In this document: positions 254 through 64,000 of the stretch, piece by piece
Numbering within the stretch: position 1 is the stretch's first letter
How the letters are laid out: every line of letters starts with the position of its first letter
Assembly (NCBI GenBank): GCA_964016885.1
Contig: OZ024741.1
Location: 140,554,001 to 140,618,000 of the forward strand
From: Eledone cirrhosa
Lineage: Eukaryota
DNA: 64,000 nucleotides
Direction: 5' to 3'
Made by a program: the position numbers and the translations under genes
The notes under the pieces: generated by a model
Databases searched by the model: none
What the model was told of the DNA's origin: nothing
What the model saw: only the letters and a program-made list of their open reading frames with translations

Positions 254-254
<1 letters not shown>

Positions 255-917
255 AAAACAAATAACGAAACGAAATTAAATTTCGCTTCGTTTGTAACTC
301 ACTTTTGTATGACTGACGCTTAAACAATTAAGTTAAAAATGTACATCCACATATGTATACTGAAATATTAGTATGCATATAAATACACACACGTGTACAT
401 ATGTAGATGTACCGAGTTTTTCACTGGTCACCTTACTGTGAGTGTTCAGCTATTCTGTATGTAAACACACAGACAAACCAGTTTTTAGAGTCATACTGGT
501 TTTAATTTCGTTTCGTTATTTGTTTTTATCGTCTCCGCTGAACCGGTACGTACTCACGCTCTATGCAAATTAGTCTGCCCACTACTAATTTTCATAGAAA
601 AAGCATATAACGATATGTGCTTTTACGATTCTCTAGAAAGGCCGGAATAGGTAAATATTGCTGATGAGATGTAACAACATCGAAACTAGTCCAATGTTCC
701 TGTCTGGCTTTCTGGAGAATAGAGGAAAGTTGGTTCCTCGAAAACCAGTATGACTCTAAAAAACGGTTTGTCTGTGTGTTTACATACAGAATAGCTGAAC
801 ACTCACAGTAAAGTGTCCAGTGAAAAACTTGGTACATCTACATATGTACACGTGTGTGTATTCATATGCATACTAATATTTCAGTATACATATGGGGATG
901 TACATTTTTAACTTAAT

Positions 918-918
<1 letters not shown>
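254..918 (+). mobile_element. Non-coding HHR-containing retrozyme-like unit A (~463 nt) with inverted partial copy
   Basis: 326-503 is the reverse complement of 741-918 and 254-279 of 502-528; flanked by (TA)n; no credible ORF; contains an HHR. Confidence 0.7.
654..698 (+). ncRNA. Type I hammerhead ribozyme (GUC site) with extended stem I
   Basis: aatattg-CTGATGA-gatgt-aaca-acatc-GAAA-ctag-TC-caatgtt; flanks attctctagaaaggccgga / tctggctttctggagaat also pair. Confidence 0.9.
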
Positions 919-1399: not shown

Positions 1400-3635
<2,236 letters not shown>

Positions 3636-8503: not shown

Positions 8504-11500
8504 TTATACTTCTCTTAGGTCAGTGTTGTTTGTTTGGGTGTTGTTGTTGTTCCACTCATTCTTTCTGTTTAGCTTTGGTCTTCTAATTTCTATTTCACTG
8601 GCCTCTCTGATTTGCCTATCTGCTGGGTCATTCCTATGTTTAGATATTATTCTAATTTCTATGTTGTCTATGTTACCGTCATGTTGTTGTCTAGCATGTT
8701 CGTATAGTACTGACCCGTTTTTTCGTCCTTTTAGTTCCCCCCAGTGTTGGTCTATCCTTTCACCTATGCTACGAGCTGTCTCACCTATGTATGTTGTTGT
8801 CGTGTTTCTGCAAGTACCCTCTGTACATCTTATGCTATAGACTACGTTTCTAGTTTTACAGTTTATCCGGGGGTTCACCTTACATATGATACATTTCCTA
8901 TTGGTACAGTGGGTTTTCTTAAAAGGGTAGGTTTTGCTGATCAGGGATTTTATGGTGGTTCCTGGCTTTTCTACCACCTTTATTTTTAAGTGGGTCTTTC
9001 TCAGGGCCTTTCTACACTGGTTAGCTAATTTCCCTCCAGGGGTGGCGTCCACAAACATGACACTCTGATATCTCTGGTTGTCGTACCATGATGTGGCCTT
9101 CCCTATCTTATGTCTAGCCCTATCTAAGCTATTCCATGATTTGCTCCTGTATAGTGGGCAAATTCCTTTCATGTCCAGTTCTATGAGGGTCTTATACTTT
9201 TCCATGGCTCCTTCGTATACTCTGACTCTGTCTTTTTGGTTGTAGCCAGAGAATTGCATGCGGTTGATGAAGTGTTGGATGTGTCCTTCCATTTCTGTTG
9301 GGTCGCACATGCTGGACACATTCTTCATCACTCGTACCAAATCTGCGATCAGAATATTAAACTTAGCACTACTGGACATTGCTGAGTTTTTGAGTATCAG
9401 GTATTTGGAGGCCATGGGTTTAGCATAGTGTGAGTGGAGAATTTGGGCTCTCTCGTCTATAGTGTTAATCCAGAGTTCTGTGTCTAATACAGGTAGTCTA
9501 TTGTTAGGGTGTTTGGAAGGGAAGTCTATAGTTACAGTTATACTCTGGTGTATGGAATTAGCTATCTGCTGGATGCTTTCCATCGTGCTACGTTCTAAAT
9601 CAAAATTGTTAGTGCTCTCTAGTGGGGGTGTTCTTATAGCTATATTGATATCGTCTACATAACGAGAGTACATGCTGAGGTCTATGGAGCTTTCATTAAG
9701 GAGATCTTTAAGTCTCCTTTCCCACCATACCATGAAAAGGTTGGCAACATCACCAGCTATAGTGACGCCGATGGCTGCTCCCTCATTTTGGGTGTAGATT
9801 TTCTCATTGAACTTAAATATGTGGCCCTTTAGGGTAGTTTTGATACTAGCCCCTATTGCATGTGCGACCATTTTTCTTACCTGATCAGTGTTTTGGGGGG
9901 TCCGTATAGCTTTGGTCCACCCAATCCACCTTCCTATGGGAGTCTTTTTAGCCATTGAGGTTATGGTGGGGGGTCTACCTCTTATAGGTCTACTAGGGCA
10001 GAAACATCTAAGGTCATGGCTGTCTAGGTAGTCAGTGTCGTAGGTAAGTCTAAGTAGGAGGCCCAGTTCGTCTGTGTCGACGTCGCAGAACTCCACCTCA
10101 CTCTCAATGATCATCTCCACACATCTTTTCACAGCAAAATCAATGTTAATGGATGGGGACAGTGACACCACATCCATGCTGCCTATTATGCAGTTGGATA
10201 GGCTCCTGTTTTTGTTGCACTCACTGATTCTGCTGAGGAGGTCCTCTGTACTTTCACATACATCTGGGGACATCTTGATTATGGGGCGCATAACCATTGA
10301 GAGGAAGTAGGAGATCCTGCAGTTGCTAGCTATATTAGCTCCGCATACGGGTCTTGTTGGTGGTCCTGTTGTCGGGTCGTCGACTGTCTTGTGGTCTTTG
10401 CGGAGCCCATACAAGGGTGGTATGCCATTGTTAGACGCCGGGAAGTTGTTGGCAGTGCGTCTGCTTGGCTTTAGGATGTCAGTCCACATCATCATGTGAG
10501 CGTTGAGGATTTTTTCTCTCCCATCGTGTGTTAGTTGTGCAACTTCGCTCGTGTTGGTGATGTGGGGTTGCATTGCCTCGATGTAGTTCGGCATGCTATC
10601 TATTGACATCCTACCAGACTTATCTGTGGGTAGACACACTACCTCACCATCCCTTGTGCGCTGCTTGAGGCTAACCAAGCCTTCTACAGGTTTTATCCCA
10701 AGTTGTTGGGCCTCTGGTCTGCTCTGTCTCATAGTGTACCTGTCTACTACTTGTCTAATCTTATTTCTAGCTATGGTGAACTGTGCCTCCGTCTCGTCAT
10801 CTATTTGCTGTGGTATGCAAACTCTTTTATTAAAGGGTAACCTCGTAGGATAGATATTACCCATCTTATATGTTTTGTCAGCTGGGTTGAAAAATAGTTT
10901 CTCTAAGGGGTTGTCGTTATTTCTATCGTCATAGTTGTGTGTGTTGCTATTATTGTTATCATGGTGGTTGTTGTTGTTTCTATCATTAGCATTAATATTA
11001 TTATTGTTATGATTGCTAGATGTATTGTTGTTTACTTCACCGTTATTGTTGTTGTTGTTACTGCTATTTCTACCATTGTGGTTGTTACTATTATTATGTT
11101 TCTTGTTTTTGTTGATGTTGCTACATGTACTATTTCCATTATTACCACTGTGGTTATTGTTGTTGTTGTTGTTCGTATTGTTACCGTTATTACTACTGTG
11201 GTCACTGTTGCTGTGTCTGTGGTTAACGTTTCTATTATTATTATTATTGTGGTTGTTGTTGTTCTGTCTATCGCTAGTATTATTACCATTATCACTATTT
11301 CTCACTTTCCTGCCATTGTTATGGTTATGGCTGTTATTTCTATACCCAGAGTTATTGTTTATATTACTACTACCGTTATTATTGTTGTTGTTGTTTACCT
11401 TTGCATTCCAACGTATTTTTGTGAAACACTTTTCCAGCTCCGTTTTGCATTCCATAGGGTTAATCTTTTTGTAGATGGCAAATTTTGGTGGTAACTTTAG

Positions 11501-11593
11501 GATTTGTTGTTCTTGTTCACTGATTAAAGTGTTCCCATAGATATTTACTGTGTGGTCATTGGTAAATTCTTCCGGTAGTTTTACATCACTCAT
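8504..11593 (-). CDS. PLE polyprotein: Asn-rich linker, RT, thumb, Cys-rich linker, GIY-YIG endonuclease
   Basis: PTDKSG, LYGLRKDHK, RPVCG, GSMDVVSL, GAAIG, SRYVDD, LPVLD, CxxxxCxxC, VVYSIRC..YIGETARS..RIDQH, RQIREA..I..LNRKNEW. Confidence 0.95.
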   Translation of the reverse strand: MSDVKLPEEFTNDHTVNIYGNTLISEQEQQILKLPPKFAIYKKINPMECKTELEKCFTKIRWNAKVNNNNNNNGSSNINNNSGYRNNSHNHNNGRKVRNSDNGNNTSDRQNNNNHNNNNNRNVNHRHSNSDHSSNNGNNTNNNNNNNHSGNNGNSTCSNINKNKKHNNSNNHNGRNSSNNNNNNGEVNNNTSSNHNNNNINANDRNNNNHHDNNNSNTHNYDDRNNDNPLEKLFFNPADKTYKMGNIYPTRLPFNKRVCIPQQIDDETEAQFTIARNKIRQVVDRYTMRQSRPEAQQLGIKPVEGLVSLKQRTRDGEVVCLPTDKSGRMSIDSMPNYIEAMQPHITNTSEVAQLTHDGREKILNAHMMMWTDILKPSRRTANNFPASNNGIPPLYGLRKDHKTVDDPTTGPPTRPVCGANIASNCRISYFLSMVMRPIIKMSPDVCESTEDLLSRISECNKNRSLSNCIIGSMDVVSLSPSINIDFAVKRCVEMIIESEVEFCDVDTDELGLLLRLTYDTDYLDSHDLRCFCPSRPIRGRPPTITSMAKKTPIGRWIGWTKAIRTPQNTDQVRKMVAHAIGASIKTTLKGHIFKFNEKIYTQNEGAAIGVTIAGDVANLFMVWWERRLKDLLNESSIDLSMYSRYVDDINIAIRTPPLESTNNFDLERSTMESIQQIANSIHQSITVTIDFPSKHPNNRLPVLDTELWINTIDERAQILHSHYAKPMASKYLILKNSAMSSSAKFNILIADLVRVMKNVSSMCDPTEMEGHIQHFINRMQFSGYNQKDRVRVYEGAMEKYKTLIELDMKGICPLYRSKSWNSLDRARHKIGKATSWYDNQRYQSVMFVDATPGGKLANQCRKALRKTHLKIKVVEKPGTTIKSLISKTYPFKKTHCTNRKCIICKVNPRINCKTRNVVYSIRCTEGTCRNTTTTYIGETARSIGERIDQHWGELKGRKNGSVLYEHARQQHDGNIDNIEIRIISKHRNDPADRQIREASEIEIRRPKLNRKNEWNNNNTQTNNTDLREV

Positions 11594-11617
11594 ACGGATG
11601 TTGTCGATGTTATCTGG

Positions 11618-12277: not shown

Positions 12278-13410
12278 ATGCTTTGGGAGGGTCATGGTGC
12301 CAATAAGAAACACACGCACCAGTTGCTTTTACTCCAATTTATTATAAATTAAATTTATAAATTTTCCGTTGGTTGGTTGGTTGGTTAATACAATAAACTC
12401 ATGGTATGATAGCAATAAATCCAGAGTGTAATGTTCATCAATACAACCCCTAGAGGTGAATTAGCTTACACATTTAGAAGAGCCCTAGATAAATATAAAC
12501 TCAATATTAAGATAGTAGAAAGACGAGCTACCTCCATAATAAACACTTATTATCAATACATACCCTTTTCAAAGACCTCGCTGTTTAGATAAGAAATGTA
12601 TACTCTGTAAACTAAGCCCCATATTAACTGTAAAAATAGAAAAGTAATATATAGCATAAGATGTACTGAAGGACAATGTAGAGATAAGAATATAGTGTAC
12701 ATAGGTGAGACAGCTCGTAGTATAGGAGAACGGATAAATGAAAACTGGCGAGGTCTTAAAGATAGAAAAGAATCATCTGTACTCCACCAATATGCTAAAA
12801 TAGAACACAAGGGTAAATTAGAGAACATAGAAATAAAAATAGAATCTACACACAGAAAAGACGCAATGTTTAGACAAATTACAGAGGCAATAAACTTAAA
12901 TGAACTCCAACCAAAATTAAATAGAAAAACATGAATGGAATAGCAACATCACAACTTACAATTAAGGACAAAATGAAAACACACACATAGAACAAACAAC
13001 CAACCAGTACCATATAAATAAACAAATAAATAAACAAATACAAACACACATAGACACGCGGATGTAATGCATGCGCAACGTAGCACACAACACACACAAA
13101 AACAAGATGGCGTAGGACAGAGCAAAGGAGAGGCACAAAAACAAATAAAAGAATCCCAAGTCACTGAAGAGGTCACAAAATATGTGACGAAAGAACTTTG
13201 ACAATATATGAACAACCGTCCGGTTGTGAAACCAACCAACCAACGGGATATTTATAAATTCTTAAATTTATTAATTTAATTTATAGTAAATTGAATGAAA
13301 GCGATGGTGCGTGTGTTGCTTATTGGCAACATGACCCTCCCAAAGTATAACAATATCGGTTTCAAGATACGTTTTCAGATATAGAATCTTGCTAAACAAA
13401 TTCAGAAACG

Positions 13411-19451: not shown

Positions 19452-19794
19452 CAGCCTCATAAATACCACGTGTTAGATGACCAACGTCATGCTTTTGTTC
19501 AAGTGGTAGCTGAGAGAAAACAATCGACAATTTTTTCGATGTTATTCTTCCTTATCGACATTGTGTATCTTATAACTGTAAACCGCTGAGACTGCTGAGA
19601 ATATATAGGCTTCTCAAATGTATTCTTTAGTTGATCAGCCTCATTTGCATACTGAGCCATTTTACTGGCGCCTTTTAATTTTATGCAAAGCCGGTCGTAA
19701 AATCGCGGAGACATAATGTATTATAATATTACTATTATTAACTCACGAATACATTTGCTATACATCATGTTTAGAGCGAAAACAAATTTTGTTT

Positions 19795-21512: not shown

Positions 21513-24500
21513 CTAGTAGTTTAGCCCGGCGTTGCTCGGGTTTATTCATTTGCTATGAAACGTTACATACTGGTAAACGTAGCTTGAAAGCGAATAAGCT
21601 TATCAATTAAGTCTATAAAGCAGTTGAACCTGTTGTTAAAAGTTACGAACTAATTAGCATTTTGGACAATCAATGATAGGTTAATAATCTTCCAATAGCA
21701 TACCAAAGTTACAAGATGGTGGCCCTGATGCCGCTGGGTGTCAGATCTGTCCGCCATAGGTGACCCTACCAGGAATTAGTTTTCCAGAGAGCATAGCTCC
21801 AACAACTCCAACACTTGCACCAACATCTATAGCCCCTATTTGTAGACGATATTGCGTGTCATCTCTTGAGGAGTGTAAGCAAAAATGTCCATTCCTGCTC
21901 CCTACGCGGGAACAACAACATAAAGTTGGCCATGGGGGAAGCATGGCTGCCCCAAATGGATGCCCGCCACCGACAATGTTTGCCCATGCGACTTGTTAAT
22001 GCACATGGCAAAACATGGTCTCACCGGGAATGGGATCGCCGGAAATCGAACGGGATATCTTACGCCGATAGGAATAGGTTCATCCTTGGAATGAAAACAT
22101 TATCCCCCCTCCCGCACCCCGTTACAATCGTGGCCTCAATCAAGTGGGGCGTCAGTGACTTGACGACCATGCGAGTACCGTTGCACTGCTTTGGTGGACG
22201 TAAGTTCCTTATTAGCATAATGGGACAGCCAACCCAAGCTTAAGAATGTGAGGTGGGAGCCCTGGGGACTCAGGGGAATTTAATAACTCAACCGGATAAT
22301 TAATGATATCGTCGGGGTCTGACGTCCGGTCGATAGATTTGAAGATGCGCTCTTTACCGGGAATCTTCTCAATCAGCTGCTCGTTAATAAAATTAACCAT
22401 GGCATTTTTCGGAGCAAGGATGGCTCTTTCGCTGAGCCAATCGAGGTTTTTAAAGTTAGATGAGACATTAGAAAAAACTGCTTCACAAAGGTCAGAAGAG
22501 CTGCTCACTATGTTGCACAGGGAGTCGATTGCTATGCTGCCCTTGTCATCCGCAGGGACCTTGCCGTCACTAAGTGCTAAAATGTTCTGAGCAAATTCTG
22601 CAGACATGTTGTCACCATACAAATGAGCACGCATATTTGTGCTCAGGTACAAACTCTTCACCTGGGGCCACAACGTGGACGACTTAAGGCAGGCACGCAC
22701 TTCATCAGCTCTTGTCCCTTTGGGGATGATAGGCAGTGTTTGCCGAATATCCCCAGATAGCAGAAGGGTTACCCCACCCATAGGAGCCGTAGAATCCCTA
22801 ATGTCTTCCAGGGCGTCAAGGCCCTGGAAGACATCAGTCGTCCAATGCCTCAAGGGCACCCTTGTGTGCCATTGTGCACTCATCCCAAACAATGAGGCAA
22901 CATTTTTTGAGAACCAGAGCTTCGTGTGAGCTCTTGCTGATATTGCATGTTGGTGTCTCAGCTTTTACTAAATCCAAGGGGAGTTTAAAGTTTGAATGTG
23001 CTGTCCTGCCTCCCGGCAGCAAAGTAGCAGCGATCCCGCACGATGCAACGGCCAACGCAATTTTTTTCTCCTTAGAAATCTTAGCGAGAATCAATTTCGT
23101 TACAAAAGTTTTTTCCGGTACCCCCAGGAGCATCGAGAAAGTAAATACCCCCAGTCTGATTTTGAACCGCGTCAATGATAGTTTAATAGGCTAACCTTTG
23201 GTCCGACAGAAGTTTGGGCTCATTTTCCTCTAAGTATTGGGAAAGAGATTCAATGTCATATGCTGTTTCCCGCAACAAGCCATACGTCGCCAACTCACTC
23301 CCATCCATGTCGAAGAGGGCATCCTCGATATCAATGAGTGCTGTAACCAATTTGCACTGAAGGATACTGCAGATGAGCCAGGCGCAGGAAGTCCTCAGAC
23401 ATGAAGTCTCTGTACTCAACCCATAAAGATTTGGAATCACCCAATTCACACTTTTGAAGTTAAATGGCAAAGAGTTCCCGTAGACCTTTAGGTGATTTCA
23501 ACAAAGCACCCTCTGCTAAAGTGGAATCCTATTGCGAATCATCTTCCAAAAGGCCACGCTTAAAGCAGGATTCCCGGTACGTATCACATATTTCACAATC
23601 AACAGTGTTCAGGTCCTGAAAACTTCGTGGGCCTATAACTTCATGCAGAAGAAGGCGGAGATGAAAGCGCTCATGCTGAATTGGGACACAGTGTAAACCC
23701 TTCCAAGACAGCTGTCAAATTTTACACCAGGATGTCTTTCAACGCGACGAAGTATAGCAAGATGTATTGCTGACTACGCTGGTCGTCTGTTTCAGCAGCT
23801 CTTCTATTTGCTGAACGTAAAGCACTTTGTGACTATCGCAATTCAGTTTCCTCCTGCGACTCATTCAACCGTCTTCTTTTCTGTTTAGCTGCAGACACCG
23901 TTTTACGACCAAGTGAGCATCTCTTTTTGGGGGGCATTATATCTGAAAATGTTAAACAAAAACCTTATGAAATTCGAAACTAAATGGTAAACACATTTGA
24001 ATGTAAGATGAAATGGCAAGGAAAAAAAAAGTAAATGAAGATGCAATATTCAAGCAAAATTGGGGGTAGGTATGACTACCAACTGGTAGTATTTGGACGG
24101 AAAAGCAGAATATTTGGGGGGAAAATCACTGAACAAACGTATTTGCAAGCTTAAAAGTAAAATGTTATGCTTGACAGAAAGTATTGACAGGTATATTTTT
24201 AATAACGTAAAAGAAAGAAGAACATACAGGTAAACGTGGCTTGAAACAGAATAAGCTTTTCGAATTCTAATGTTAAATATCATGATCGAGTGTTTTTTGC
24301 TTCATGACCTTCTCCTGACCAAAAGCAATAATTGTCCCGACTTTGAATAGAATCCGTTGGAAATAAAACACTGAAAATATTAGACTTTATATGAAAAGAA
24401 AAATACATAAACACACACTCACCTAATCAGTGTATTCGGCAGAATTGCCAGAACTACTATGGGTATTGTCATATTAATATTTAACCAATTAAAGTCGCAA

Positions 24501-48417: not shown

Positions 48418-48472
48418 ACTGCCTGAAGAGGTCACAGCCAAAGGTGACTGTCACCGAAATATATATAGCAGT
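48418..48472 (+). ncRNA. Minimal type I hammerhead in a ~210-bp insert between (TA)n tracts
   Basis: actgc-CTGAAGA-ggtcacag..ctgtcacc-GAAA-tatata-TA-gcagt. Confidence 0.85.
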
Positions 48473-58282: not shown

Positions 58283-61240
58283 CTTTCTTTTTATTTGCCA
58301 CCAGGGCATCAAAAGTGGGACAAGTACAATGGGGGGAGTTTACATAAAAAAGCGTCCTCAATAAGGAGGAGGCATTAACAAGATATAAAAATAAAATAAA
58401 ATATAACAAAATAAATTTAATAACAAAATCCTCAATATGGAGGAGGCGCCTTGGGGGATCGCACACACCCCCGAAAAAAGTGTGCAACCCTTCTACTCAG
58501 GAGCACAGAGAGGGGGTGATCCCTTGATCTTTCATCTTCCTCACCTATAGTCTGATGTAGAGTGAAGGCCCATTCACACGGGCCATTGTCGCCACTTTCA
58601 CCCATCTTTCATAAAAACGGCTGGGGTGCAGCAGCTCTCTCTCCATCCCGATCCTTCTTCCGAAATGATATCGGAAGAAACGGACCAGTTGTTGGCCAGA
58701 GAGAAAGGTGTCTGACCTCAGTCCTTTCAAATGCGTCCACCATGCAAAATCTTTCGCCATGGCTATTACGCACAGAAACACCGCCTCTCCTTCGTTTTTG
58801 AAGAGGGGAGGCGGCTTGATCGTTACAATAGGCTCAGTGGTCAACCGGATCGGTCCCACCCTTGACAGCAGTTGTTCGAGGTCACCCCACAGATCGGCAA
58901 TCCCCGAGCAGTGTACCAATGCGTGTGCAACGGTTTCCTGGTCGCACACGTATCTGGGACAGATCCTTTTCGAGGGGTCCCTACCCGGGCGCCCGTGTCT
59001 GTAGAGCCTTTCTCGAACAAGCAGAGCCCCTCGGTAGCACTGTCAGGCCAGGGACCTCTGGAAGTTATCCATGGGTCCCTACCGAACAGGTTGGCCAGTT
59101 CGTCTTCCTCCATGCCTAGGGCCTCTCCGAGGGCGGCGTCGGACCTGCTAACCACCAGCCCTCTATAGAATGACGAGGTGGATTCTCCACTGACAGCCGG
59201 GTCCGCCTGCCAGAGTGCCGTGAGCGCCTGGGCATACTCAGTGTGCCAGGCGCCCAGTTTTCTCGGTCTTTACTTGACCCAGGATTGCAGCTCGGTGAGT
59301 GAGACGAGTTTGGGAAAGGTTCGCCTCACAAACGGGCCCACACCGGTTGAACCGGTGAGGAATACCTGGAGGTGCCGTAGCCTTAATGCGTTTTTACGTA
59401 TCATTAGCCACGGCATCCCCAGCTCTCCTTTCGAAGGGTGTTGACAGCAGATGGATCTCCTCACCATAGGAGCCCGCTTCTTCCAAAGGAATGGAAGAGT
59501 GCGCGCTCCATTTTGGAGAGCGTTTCCTTTGGCCAAGGCACAACAGTCAGGCTGTAGTAGATGACGGACGCTATATAAGTGTTCGCCACCTCCGCACGAC
59601 CTTTCAGGGACAGTTTGCACTCGGCCCACTTCTGGGTCAGTGCAAACACCCTGTACGTTACCTCACCCCAGCTCTTCTCCACCTGGAGGTCTGGTCCGAA
59701 CCAGACCCCGAGCAACTTCACCGGGCCCTCCGTCAAGCGCCCGACGACGCCCTCGGAGGGCATCGATCTGCCCCTCCACGTGCCGAGTTGCAGACCGATC
59801 GACTTGTCCCGGTTCAGCTTAGCTCCTGTAAAGCTTTCGTACTCCTCCAGTAAGGTGCCGATCGCCCTATTTCCGAGGCCATCGACACCATTACTGTTAC
59901 GTCATCGGCGTAGGCCGACACCGCTTTCCGCAATCCCGGTTCCAACGGGATGCCCTGCAGCAACTCCAACTTCCGCAGCAGTGGCTCTAAAGTGGCTCTC
60001 AGAAGGGAGGAGACAGGGCACCCTTGTCGGATGGACCGCGCGATTTCGAACGGCTCCAAAAGGTAGCCGTTCACCTTGAGCCTAGAGCAGATGCGGCTTC
60101 TGTGCATAGCATTGATCCAGCCCCTGAAAACGGGTTAGAAGCCTGCCGCCGCTAGCACCGCATCCAGGTAACCATGGTCGACCCTATCGAATGCCTTAGA
60201 TTGATCCAAGTTGATCAGGGCCCCCTTCAAAGCCGGGTTCGTCCCAACCCTCTCTATGATGTATCGCATGAGGTGGAGGTAGTCGTGGATGGACCTGGAC
60301 GGGATAGCACATGTCTGCGCATCTCCCACCAGGTTTCCTACGACACGCGCCAACCTCTTTGCTAGCACCTTGGCCAAAATCTGCAACTCTGTATTTAGCA
60401 GAGTAATGGGCCTGAAATTATTAATATCGTCCCCTTTGTTCTCGTCCTTCCTCACTAGCGTGACTACGCCCTTGGTCACAGAACAGGGAATTCTTCCGTT
60501 CTGTTGCCAGTTGCAGTACGCCGCCTCGAGATCGGGGAACAAGTCCGGCATAGCTAGATATAGTTCGTATGGAAGACCATCGAGACCCGGGGATTTTCTT
60601 TGCCGCATTGGCTCAGCACATCCTCTATCTCAGCGGCTGAAATCGGCTCCTCGCAAGACTTCGCCTCCCTCTCCGTGAGACGCGGCAGGCCGTCGATGTA
60701 TGGACCGAAATCCACTAATCCAACCTGCTCCCCGCCCCTTCCGAACTATATGGCAAAGTGCTTTTGAAAAGCCTAGCACATCTGATTAGGCTCAAGGATC
60801 ACCCGTCCATCCTGGTCTCGCAAAGACCGGATAGTGGATCTGCTCCCTCTTTTGGCTTCTGTCACGCGGGCCCATCTAACAGCTTTTGTCCCCTCGTTTC
60901 CCAGAGCACGCATTTTGCTTCGGACGATGCAGCCTTCGTGTTTCGCGTCGAAGAACTGGCCCAGGGCCGTTCTCGACGCTAGCACTCTGGCCACGTCGAC
61001 GCTTCTAATTGCCTCTTCTACACTATCTACCAACTCCCTTTCCTTCCTATTTCTATTTGAGGCTAACTCCTTACTAAATTCTATAGAGACTACTCTAATC
61101 TCCTTTTTGAGAGATCCCCACCACCTGCTGTTGACGATGGCGCCCGTCAACCGCTCCTTAACTAAAGTGCTAATCCGGTCCCTGTAAGCCTTACTTGCCG
61201 ATAAGGACAAGTTGAGCTTCCAGTAACCGGGTCCCTGTCT
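58283..61240 (-). mobile_element. 5'-truncated L1/Tx1-clade LINE (ORF2 frameshifted)
   Basis: GPGYWKLN, KSPGLDGLPYELY, RPITLLN, LDQSKAFDRVDH, IRQGCP, AYADD, KLLGVWFG, CxxC..ETVAHALVHC; AATAAA at ~58290. Confidence 0.92.
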
Positions 61241-62071: not shown

Positions 62072-62106
<35 letters not shown>

Positions 62107-62116
<10 letters not shown>

Positions 62117-62488
62117 GAAAACGAAATTTCATTTCTCACTCTTAGTATGGCACTTACTTAAATGTAAGTATGCATGTATACGTACATACATATATGTATA
62201 CAGACGTACAGTAGCATGCACATATATATATATATATACATATATACATACATATGCATACAGGTACACATACATATATGCACGTATCAGTTTAGCGGCG
62301 CTTATTATAACGTCGCTTTGTTCGTTTGTAAACAAACTGAACAGCCTGAATTTATGCCATACGGTGTTAAGGCAACCACGTCACCTTTTTGTTCAACACT
62401 GACACAGGAAGGATGTACTAGTTTCAAGCTTGTTAGCTAACATCAGCACCGTTTACCCATCTGCCAGATAGTTGAACGTTCGAAAGTA
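62107..62488 (-). mobile_element. Inverted partial copy of unit B (HHR core mutated to CTGATGT)
   Basis: Reverse complement of the array unit; abuts (TA)n at 62106. Confidence 0.85.
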
Positions 62489-62922
62489 CATCGTTCCTGT
62501 GTCAGTGTTGAACAAAAAGGTGACGTGGTTGCCTTAACACCGTATGGCATAAATTCAGGCTGTTCAGTTTGTTTACAAACGAACAAAGCGACGTTATAAT
62601 AAGCGCCGCTAAACTGATACGTGCATATATGTATGTGTACCTGTATGCATATGTATGTATATATGTATATATATATATATATGTGCATGCTACTGTACGT
62701 CTGTATACATATATGTATGTACGTATACATGCATACTTACATTTAAGTAAGTACCATACTAAGAGTGAGAAATGAAATTTCGTTTTCATTTTGTTTCAAT
62801 TTATCGTTTTCGGTATGCCTGACCGATTTAACTCACTCAATATGCAAATTAGGCTGCTCAGCCGTTAATTTTCATAAGGAAAGTATATACTTTCGAACGT
62901 TCAACTATCTGGCAGATGGGTA

Positions 62923-62967
62923 AACGGTGCTGATGATAGCTAACAAGCTTGAAACTAGTACATCGTT
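62923..62967 (+). ncRNA. Hammerhead ribozyme (GUA site after 62960)
   Basis: aacggtg-CTGATGA-t-agct-aaca-agct-t-GAAA-ctag-TA-catcgtt. Confidence 0.85.
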
Positions 62968-63394
62968 CCTGTGTCAGTGTGGAACAAAAAGGTGACGTGG
63001 TTGCCTTAACACCGTATGGCATAAATTCAGGCTGTTCAGTTTGTTTACAAACGAACAAAGCGACGTTATAATAAGCGCCGCTAAACTGATACGTGCATAT
63101 ATGTATGTGTACCTGTATGCATATGTATGTATATATGTATATATATATATATATGTGCATGCTACTGTACGTCTGTATACATATATGTATGTACGTATAC
63201 ATGCATACTTACATTTAAGTAAGTGCCATACTAAGAGTGAGAAATGAAATTTCGTTTTCATTTTGTTTCAATTTATCGTTTTCGGTATGCCTGACCGATT
63301 TAACTCACTCAATATGCAAATTAGGCTGCTCAGCCGTTAATTTTCATAAGGAAAGTATATACTTTCGAACGTTCAACTATCTGGCAGATGGGTA

Positions 63395-63439
63395 AACGGT
63401 GCTGATGATAGCTAACAAGCTTGAAACTAGTACATCGTT
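63395..63439 (+). ncRNA. Hammerhead ribozyme (array copy 2)
   Basis: Identical to 62923-62967. Confidence 0.85.
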
Positions 63440-63864
63440 CCTGTGTCAGTGTTGAACAAAAAGGTGACGTGGTTGCCTTAACACCGTATGGCATAAATTC
63501 AGGCTGTTCAGTTTGTTTACAAACGAACAAAGCGACGTTATAATAAGCGCCGCTAAACTGATACGTGCATATATGTATGTGTACCTGTATGCATATGTAT
63601 GTATATATGTATATATATATATATGTGCATGCTACTGTACGTCTGTATACATATATGTATGTACGTATACATGCATACTTACATTTAAGTAAGTACCATA
63701 CTAAGAGTGAGAAATGAAATTTCGTTTTCATTTTGTTTCAATTTATCGTTTTCGGTATGCCTGACCGATTTAACTCACTCAATATGCAAATTAGGCTGCT
63801 CAGCCGTTAATTTTCATAAGGAAAGTATATACTTTTGAACGTTCAACTATCTGGCAGATGGGTA

Positions 63865-63909
63865 AACGGTGCTGATGATAGCTAACAAGCTTGAAACTAG
63901 TACATCGTT
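63865..63909 (+). ncRNA. Hammerhead ribozyme (array copy 3)
   Basis: Identical to 62923-62967. Confidence 0.85.
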
Positions 63910-64000
63910 CCTGTGTCAGTGTTGAACAAAAAGGTGACGTGGTTGCCTTAACACCGTATGGCATAAATTCAGGCTGTTCAGTTTGTTTACAAACGAACAA

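Follow-up and report, generated by a model that had tools for sequence, protein, structure and literature searches.

Two retrozyme-like sister families of Eledone cirrhosa keep a predicted branched RNA fold and end at the same two U-rich sites

Two high-copy elements of Eledone cirrhosa, here called families A and B, are in all probability sister retrozyme families from one ancestor, which keep a predicted branched fold at about 62% sequence identity, whose insertions stop beside (TA)n at a common pair of U-rich sites, and whose fold is likely selected as the template recognised by a Penelope-like reverse transcriptase (RT)/endonuclease. Both families occur in a stretch of 64,000 nt (GCA_964016885.1, contig OZ024741.1, positions 140,554,001 to 140,618,000 of the forward strand), hereafter the window, with insertion A at 252-918 and insertion B running from 62,100 to 64,000 and beyond.

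Insertions A and B have the same build

A first-pass annotation, made from the letters alone, had read 254-918 as one unit of about 463 nt. The unit length stood, as tandem arrays elsewhere in the genome have a period of 462-465, and 254-918 itself proved to consist of two opposed arms. A (TA)n target (224-253) is followed by a 5'-cut-short inverted arm of family A on the minus strand (252-503), which corresponds to monomer 50-301 by self-comparison and end mapping and whose outer 3' end is the 'long' end TTTAT, then (TA)n. This arm joins, with a 3-nt overlap in the self-comparison, a forward arm on the plus strand (501-918) that runs through monomer 273-463 and then 1-227, the outer 3' end being the 'short' end; a (TA)n/(TG)n flank follows at 919-1000. 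Helix 1 has its GTGAG strand, and a long-range helix its 3' strand, on the minus arm only; the whole monomer is therefore present on no single strand of insertion A. Insertion B has the identical build, i.e., (TA)n (62075-62106), an inverted arm and a forward arm. The inverted arm (399 nt, minus strand, 62100-62498) has its long end at monomer 316 and contains one hammerhead with one core letter altered. The forward arm (plus strand, 62485-64000) is a tandem array of family B units of 470-472 nt that continues past the window end, with upstream elements at 62841, 63313 and 63783, hammerhead cores at 62930, 63402 and 63872, and 12 further cores in the 6 kb fetched beyond the window. This arm begins (62485-62492) at most 4 nt from the predicted hammerhead cut, a position that is not enriched across loci (2/48).

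Among other features of the window, a short two-armed element lies between (TA)n runs at 997-1390; its inverted arms measure 53 nt and its one-sided tail about 60 nt, and near 1140 it holds a hammerhead-like core that is degenerate. Related cores lie at 13164, where the core is cleaner, and at 48423. The minus strand also carries a stop-free frame of 1037 codons with no Pfam match (8504-11617), a PIF1-like helicase fragment of Helitron-like kind (22212-22964) and a reverse-transcriptase fragment (60135-60629).

Families A and B are homologous and resemble metazoan non-LTR retrozymes

The annotation had credited the two units with little linear identity, which was overstated: BLAST with lenient scoring aligned A and B with 386 of 624 letters identical (62%, E 2e-31), and default scoring gave 69% over 153 nt (E 3e-9). 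As judged from these alignments, the families are homologous, sharing one common ancestor, and not mere look-alikes. Given this homology, the question is how far the fold is retained beyond what identity gives, rather than one of convergence. The hairpin 2 pattern shared by A and the B subfamily of the window was found 17,270 times in the genome as an exact match (reversed control, 0), and the pattern of a second subfamily, B2, had 5,351 further exact matches (control, 0). Tandem periods were 462-468 in A and about 427-538 in the B lineage, with a hammerhead core in each unit. Both loci are non-coding, with no frame of 150 aa and no LTR/PBS/PPT layout; the arms end straight in (TA)n, and the GC content of the elements is about 35%.

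The type I hammerhead of insertion A (643-713, plus strand) was matched by Rfam HH9 with 26.5 bits (E 0.024), under the gathering score of 52. Its core is intact, with CUGAUGA at 661-667, a stem II with an AACA loop, and GAAA, and self-cleavage is predicted, with the cut after GUC at 691. Stem I reaches to about 628/720, and stem III is a single pair, the palindromic ACUAGU, which suggests that cleavage probably occurs as dimers (cf. the available text of PMC4209133). The B hammerhead has U.U in place of the usual G10.1-C11.1 pair. In both families the hammerhead cores are confined to the sense strand of each arm.

Metazoan non-LTR retrozymes are defined, in the available text of PMC7229834, as tandem repeats of the genome in which every unit bears a single type I hammerhead, confined to one strand. 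Families A and B are like those of coral, mussel and axolotl (Cervera and de la Pena 2020, PMC7229834, text as available) in having a non-coding tandem unit with one type I hammerhead each, and like those described there and in the available part of a vertebrate survey (bioRxiv 10.64898/2026.07.22.740005) in low GC, self-pairing, thousands of copies and Penelope elements in the same genome. The same portions of these two sources call metazoan retrozyme sequences species-specific, and give about 170-400 nt for invertebrate retrozymes, a length exceeded by the A and B units (463-472 nt). A type I hammerhead in each unit, absence of coding capacity, low GC, dispersed and high-copy occurrence and a predicted self-paired monomer were all found here, and on these sequence features A and B would be metazoan non-LTR retrozymes carrying Penelope-type insertion marks. 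The annotation's suggestion of an undescribed family thus survives in part: no published description of A or B was found in the papers searched (Repbase, Dfam, subscription journals and supplements lay outside this scope), and the kind of element is a known one. In the Rfam search the only meaningful match was the HH9 hammerhead, with no family for the unit itself; the 96 matches at E <= 1 were all below the gathering score and nearly all were microRNA models on TA/CA repeats. An altered stem II was used to look for a third lineage having the blueprint of A and B; of the 19 matches none was new, 14 being copies of A or B subfamilies and five being other hammerheads lacking the blueprint.

Hammerhead viroids and viroid-like RNAs (Avsunviroidae) are small, branched, hammerhead-bearing RNAs that may be circular. 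The annotation's term 'viroid-like' invites the reading that A and B are replicons copied from RNA to RNA and only occasionally written into DNA, and their size, branched fold and hammerhead do resemble those of viroid-like RNAs; moreover, mussel retrozyme circles are not exact matches to genomic copies, according to the available text of PMC7229834. However, the viroid arrangement of ribozymes in both polarities is absent from the arms of A and B, where the hammerhead has one polarity only, and these elements are inherited and spread as DNA copies, i.e., as genomic tandem repeats with a single-strand type I hammerhead and a Penelope footprint at their ends, and nothing points to copying from RNA to RNA. 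Their genomic copies with Penelope-type ends number tens of thousands, and each unit keeps a DNA-level promoter-like element that a pure RNA replicon would not need; both likewise make an RNA replicon exceedingly improbable. With thousands of copies in the genome, the elements would seem to be stored chiefly as DNA.

Predicted folds of A and B agree beyond linear identity

All seven structural elements listed by the annotation were present in the sequence and, in the same order, in blind minimum-energy folds of both units. On the plus strand of insertion A, the conserved TTTAT|CGT motif (525-532), the long outer end in A, B and B2, is single-stranded in the predicted fold. Hairpin 2 has its 5' arm, TATGCAAATTAG, at 562-573 and its 3' arm at 586-596, and its arms do not change between A and the window's B. 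The C.T mismatch that the annotation saw in both units holds for A and the window's B subfamily only, and does not extend to B2 (the 5,351 matches above), which has a different 3' arm. The small ccg..cgg hairpin of A does exist, as a weak structure (two pairs in the centroid fold) that is out of register with its B counterpart. Further along lie hairpin 3 (599-624 in the fold), with a TATA-like box at 606-611, and hairpin 5 (722-739), GAGGAA/TTCCTC, which varies to GGGGGAA/TTCCCCC in an A subfamily and AGGTGAC/GTTGCCT in B. The best covarying helix, P2, is long-range: its 5' strand is at 748-755, its partner at 307-313 on the minus arm, and its strands, about 185 nt apart, read GTATGAC/GTCATAC in A and GTATGGC/GCCATAC or GTACGGC/GCCGTAC in B. 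It was missed in the first reading, as were two more hairpins common to A and B. The region 764-903 holds a TTTA-capped hairpin, a next hairpin that covaries within A and within B, and an RY-rich hairpin, which was excluded from the tests because it is self-complementary by composition.

Against shuffles, the folding z-scores of A and B were -9.7 and -8.4; removal of the RY hairpin left -3.1 for B. In order to compare the folds, blind folds of A and B were matched through a sequence-only alignment with the RY hairpin left out. Of the 11 non-ribozyme helices in A, 10 were matched in B, and the two abstract shapes were identical, while neutral descendants of A, at an identity equal to or above that of B, kept at most six helices and the shape in 0/300. 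Under a harder null, in which identical letters, gaps and the hammerhead were fixed and the differing letters alone permuted, the maximum was 7/11 (A on B) and 8/12 (B on A) against the observed 10 and 11, and the shape appeared in 0/130 each way. When the whole monomer was compared, the overlap was 7/12 helices, a value equalled by 2/200 neutral runs; we attribute the drop to aligner slips at the RY hairpin.

Variants within the families were also examined, outside the hammerhead and RY hairpin and with CpG transitions removed (51 rows). A stem variant was counted as inherited when found in at least three loci and as one-off when found once, mostly arising after insertion, with variants in exactly two loci excluded. 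Pairing was kept by 15/31 inherited and 29/122 one-off stem variants (p = 0.013), and both-sided changes made up 5/31 of the former and 3/122 of the latter (p = 0.009); 16 of the 31 inherited variants break the predicted pair. The check for covariation outside the hammerhead that the annotation had proposed gave less. In the blind column alignment of A and B there were five both-sided changes, with no excess over the neutral 4.9 +/- 2.2. When run on 28 copies (4 of A and 24 of the B lineage), RNAalifold retained 34 pairs only, losing most hairpins, and outside the hammerhead found both-sided changes in P2 alone (C-G 24 / U-A 4; G-C 21 / A-U 6). The alignment shows A and B hairpins keeping their position with altered length and register, and column-wise covariation is thin because hairpins hold their place but shift in this way.

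These results bear on the possibility that the blueprint is a by-product of descent together with short conserved motifs (promoter element, TATA, priming, ribozyme) in palindrome-rich sequence, with no selection on the fold outside the hammerhead. The 62% identity of A and B, the neutral level of blind column covariation and the unchanged arms of hairpin 2 all agree with it; yet the null that fixes the identical letters never attains the observed helix overlap, inherited variants favour pairing and P2 is altered on both sides across 185 nt, which leaves this explanation improbable. The annotation's proposal of selection on the fold outside the ribozyme therefore gains from the shape nulls and from the inherited variants, and its appeal to covariation is not borne out column by column. 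Since the comparison covers two deep lineages and energy-model folds, support is good rather than of R-scape grade; at that level, the predicted folds support conservation outside the hammerhead beyond what linear identity explains.

Insertions end at two fixed sites beside (TA)n

Arm 3' ends were mapped in 131 of 311 fetched loci, the others being mostly overlapping duplicates, other families and host genes. Among A loci, a set biased to young copies resembling that of the window, 79 of 86 arm ends lay at two sites, 39 at positions 296-301 (long) and 40 at 224-233 (short). B-lineage ends lay at the homologous sites in 97 of 126 cases (53 and 44; wider windows were used), and (TA)n was next to the fixed-site ends in 74/79 (A) and 83/97 (B lineage). 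A, B and B2 all have TTTAT|CG, the very motif flagged in the first reading, as their long end, and the short end falls on or close to TTTA|AG, within a small hairpin common to the families. Two-armed loci combined one long with one short end in 26/32 (A) and 25/39 (B), and two long ends never occurred together. The one-sided tail measured 69-74, 59 and 57 nt in homologous families; a fixed DNA ruler was rejected as its cause, given that the length differs between homologous families and tracks the motifs. Contigs from four public runs (kind unknown), possibly from the source sample, had (TA)n loose ends at the same A sites.

Inner arm ends were at random points, falling within 6 nt of the cut site in 0/87 (A), 2/48 (B) and 1/80 (B2), and the arms cross the cut site without stopping, often covering several units. 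The copying enzyme thus reads through the cut site, which a circle, an uncut multimer or smooth template jumping would make possible. One-off changes showed no A>G excess as a trace of RNA editing (42 A>G vs 39 T>C).

Penelope-like elements leave inverted cut-short copies with a one-sided tail and a (TA)n bias, according to the available text of PMC8557442, and an inverted cut-short copy, a one-sided tail and a microsatellite target were all found in A and B-lineage insertions. With the EN+ clades of these elements (Craig et al. 2021, PMC8557442; Cervera and de la Pena 2014, PMC4209133), families A and B share, as far as the available text of both goes, the inverted 5'-cut-short copy by the main copy, the one-sided tail and the (TA)n targets, as well as the type I hammerhead and short palindromic helix III; in contrast to them, A and B have no ORF and a tail of 57-74 nt rather than 30-40.

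The window itself contains a 5'-cut-short Penelope-like ORF with RT and C-terminal GIY-YIG domains (2162-3394, minus strand). The element to which it belongs (1400-3394, minus strand, 5' cut short) has a long C/A-rich 3' region with a 164-nt tandem repeat. It represents a young family, elsewhere in the genome having 887-aa frames that are 95-98% alike, whose copies are (TA)n-targeted and have two ends 42 nt apart, TTAT|C and TTTA|C, in about 15 and 15 of 30 copies as judged by eye; this tail of 42 nt compares with 57-74 nt in the A/B lineages. Its priming stretch has almost no predicted structure (-2.6 kcal/mol). Across 30 loci no sequence or pLTR homology to A/B was seen, and a pattern search of the 30 copies found no hammerhead. 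A first look at the genome gave 25,457 Penelope-like candidates, of which the comparison of ends and homology covered this one family. By sequence, the young family may serve as a model for the copying enzyme of A and B, and is a candidate rather than a proven source, since it shares no sequence with either.

A host U6-type element lies within each unit

The 5' arm of hairpin 2 is identical to an element at about -78 of the host U6, tRNA-Sec and RNase MRP genes, where it was present at four U6 loci, 2/2 tRNA-Sec genes and 1/1 RNase MRP gene; the A element equals those of U6 locus L104 and both tRNA-Sec loci in 12/12 letters. A one-mismatch form was found at the best of six U6atac matches, and the element was absent at eight U1 loci, four U2 loci and four further pseudogene-like U6 matches. 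We rejected the reading as a Pol II snRNA promoter, the U1 and U2 loci being without the element. The host U1 and U2 genes (L196-L203, L091-L094) have a common RTCAGT near -58 and a TATA-like box near -31, and the upstream element of U6-class genes is another one; in animals, a TATA box is an unusual feature of a Pol II snRNA gene.

From the start of the element to the TATA-like box there are 44 nt in A and 43 nt in B and B2, against 47-49 in all host genes bearing it, so that the A/B spacing, 4-5 nt under that of the host, departs from the host spacing of a type 3 (U6-class) Pol III promoter. The units contain T4-T5 runs that could halt Pol III, and inner arm ends, a weak proxy, did not pile up at the predicted start about 30 nt past the TATA. 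In B2 the 3' arm of hairpin 2 is altered and the TATGCAAATTAG arm retained, and older hammerhead families have the element 85-105 nt before the core without that 3' arm. Since B2 and the older families keep the element in this way, a DNA signal accounts better than RNA covariation for its conservation. What the annotation called RNA covariation is therefore, for some of the listed features, plain sequence conservation with other likely jobs (the U6-type element and the copying start motif). Per-position conservation around the element was left unused as circular, the loci having been fetched by patterns that fix it. On this sequence evidence, we consider the chances evenly balanced that the element in A and B would be a working promoter.

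Several further loci bear such an element. An older, dispersed family C (L146-L188, e.g., L181, L182, L184 and L188) combines the element with a TATA at 48 and, about 105 nt further down, a decayed hammerhead whose stem III is palindromic; the host-like spacing of family C is circular, as the search pattern demanded it. L154, L163, L174 and L222 represent further families with the element ahead of a hammerhead-like core. At 19651 of the window (minus strand) a U6-type element has a TATA at 44 nt and an apparent decayed hammerhead core about 100 nt downstream, possibly another short-spacing family. A lone U6-type element with TATA at L176 (G000:C20:7240380) has no Rfam family downstream and may mark an unannotated Pol III gene.

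Internal promoters are known from other hammerhead repeats: newt satellite 2 is a hammerhead tandem repeat with an internal snRNA-type (Pol II) promoter and the Schistosoma hammerhead satellite has an internal Pol III promoter, both as cited in the available text of PMC2220036. As compared with these two, the A/B element is of the host U6/tRNA-Sec/MRP class, not of the U1/U2 class, has an altered TATA spacing, and its promoter role is putative.

Discussion

Taken together, the same fold at about 62% identity and the same two U-rich ends next to (TA)n suggest that the fold is likely under selection as the enzyme's template. In the sequence of events that we propose, an array would be transcribed, with the U6-type element in the preceding unit as the probable promoter, and the hammerheads, as their motif predicts and probably as dimers, would release monomers that could be ligated into circles. 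The ends suggest that the enzyme would then nick (TA)n and that the freed 3' end would pair with the single-stranded UUUAU in the GUGAG/CUCAC-closed junction, and a second nick may prime at the UUUA in the small hairpin 57-74 nt upstream, giving the opposed arm.

The fold might instead serve RNA survival only, through protection from nucleases or innate sensors, hammerhead folding or ligation, with the enzyme needing just short U-rich motifs. The free variation of the A/B hairpins in length and register fits this explanation, as do the similar U-rich motifs at which the autonomous Penelope family primes within its nearly unstructured stretch (-2.6 kcal/mol) and the generally high self-pairing of metazoan retrozyme circles (available text of PMC7229834). 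Generic stability, however, needs no common branching order, and the shape was found in 0/300 and 0/130 nulls; both start sites, moreover, occupy the same place in the fold. We therefore regard survival as the sole function as possible and on the whole doubtful. Presentation of the template is favoured as the reason for the fold because both start sites are at the same place in one branching pattern, and template presentation and RNA survival are not mutually exclusive.

A bolder extension of template presentation, which we think rather unlikely, is that the fold would be a telomerase-RNA-like scaffold for the telomerase-related Penelope RT, with long-range helices fixing the U-rich template and the second start, circular RNA copied from both sides of a (TA)n break, and the same letters acting as DNA in a U6-class promoter with altered spacing, directed into the next unit. 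If this were true, promoter, ribozyme and template would all be contained in every 460-nt unit, a complete cassette with an architecture that outlives its sequence.

Mobilisation of retrozymes by Penelope elements has been proposed from co-occurrence and pLTR similarity in the available text of PMC7229834 and 10.64898/2026.07.22.740005. A whole-unit fold common to families, fixed insertion ends and an internal promoter are not reported in the available text of these two retrozyme papers (supplements lay outside this scope), and in the papers searched, within the scope given above, we found no literature on a cephalopod retrozyme, a retrozyme promoter or Penelope ends on non-autonomous hammerhead elements. 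The available text of PMC7229834, 10.64898/2026.07.22.740005 and PMC8557442 treats as open questions the transcription of animal retrozymes, their return to DNA and the RNA features that Penelope RTs recognise. Families A and B differ at four letters in ten yet keep the fold, the two start sites and the promoter-like element, and thus provide a ready mutation map. With a 460-nt template whose helices and priming sites are named and which has compensatory variants in nature, it becomes possible to test directly how animal retrozymes are copied and transcribed.
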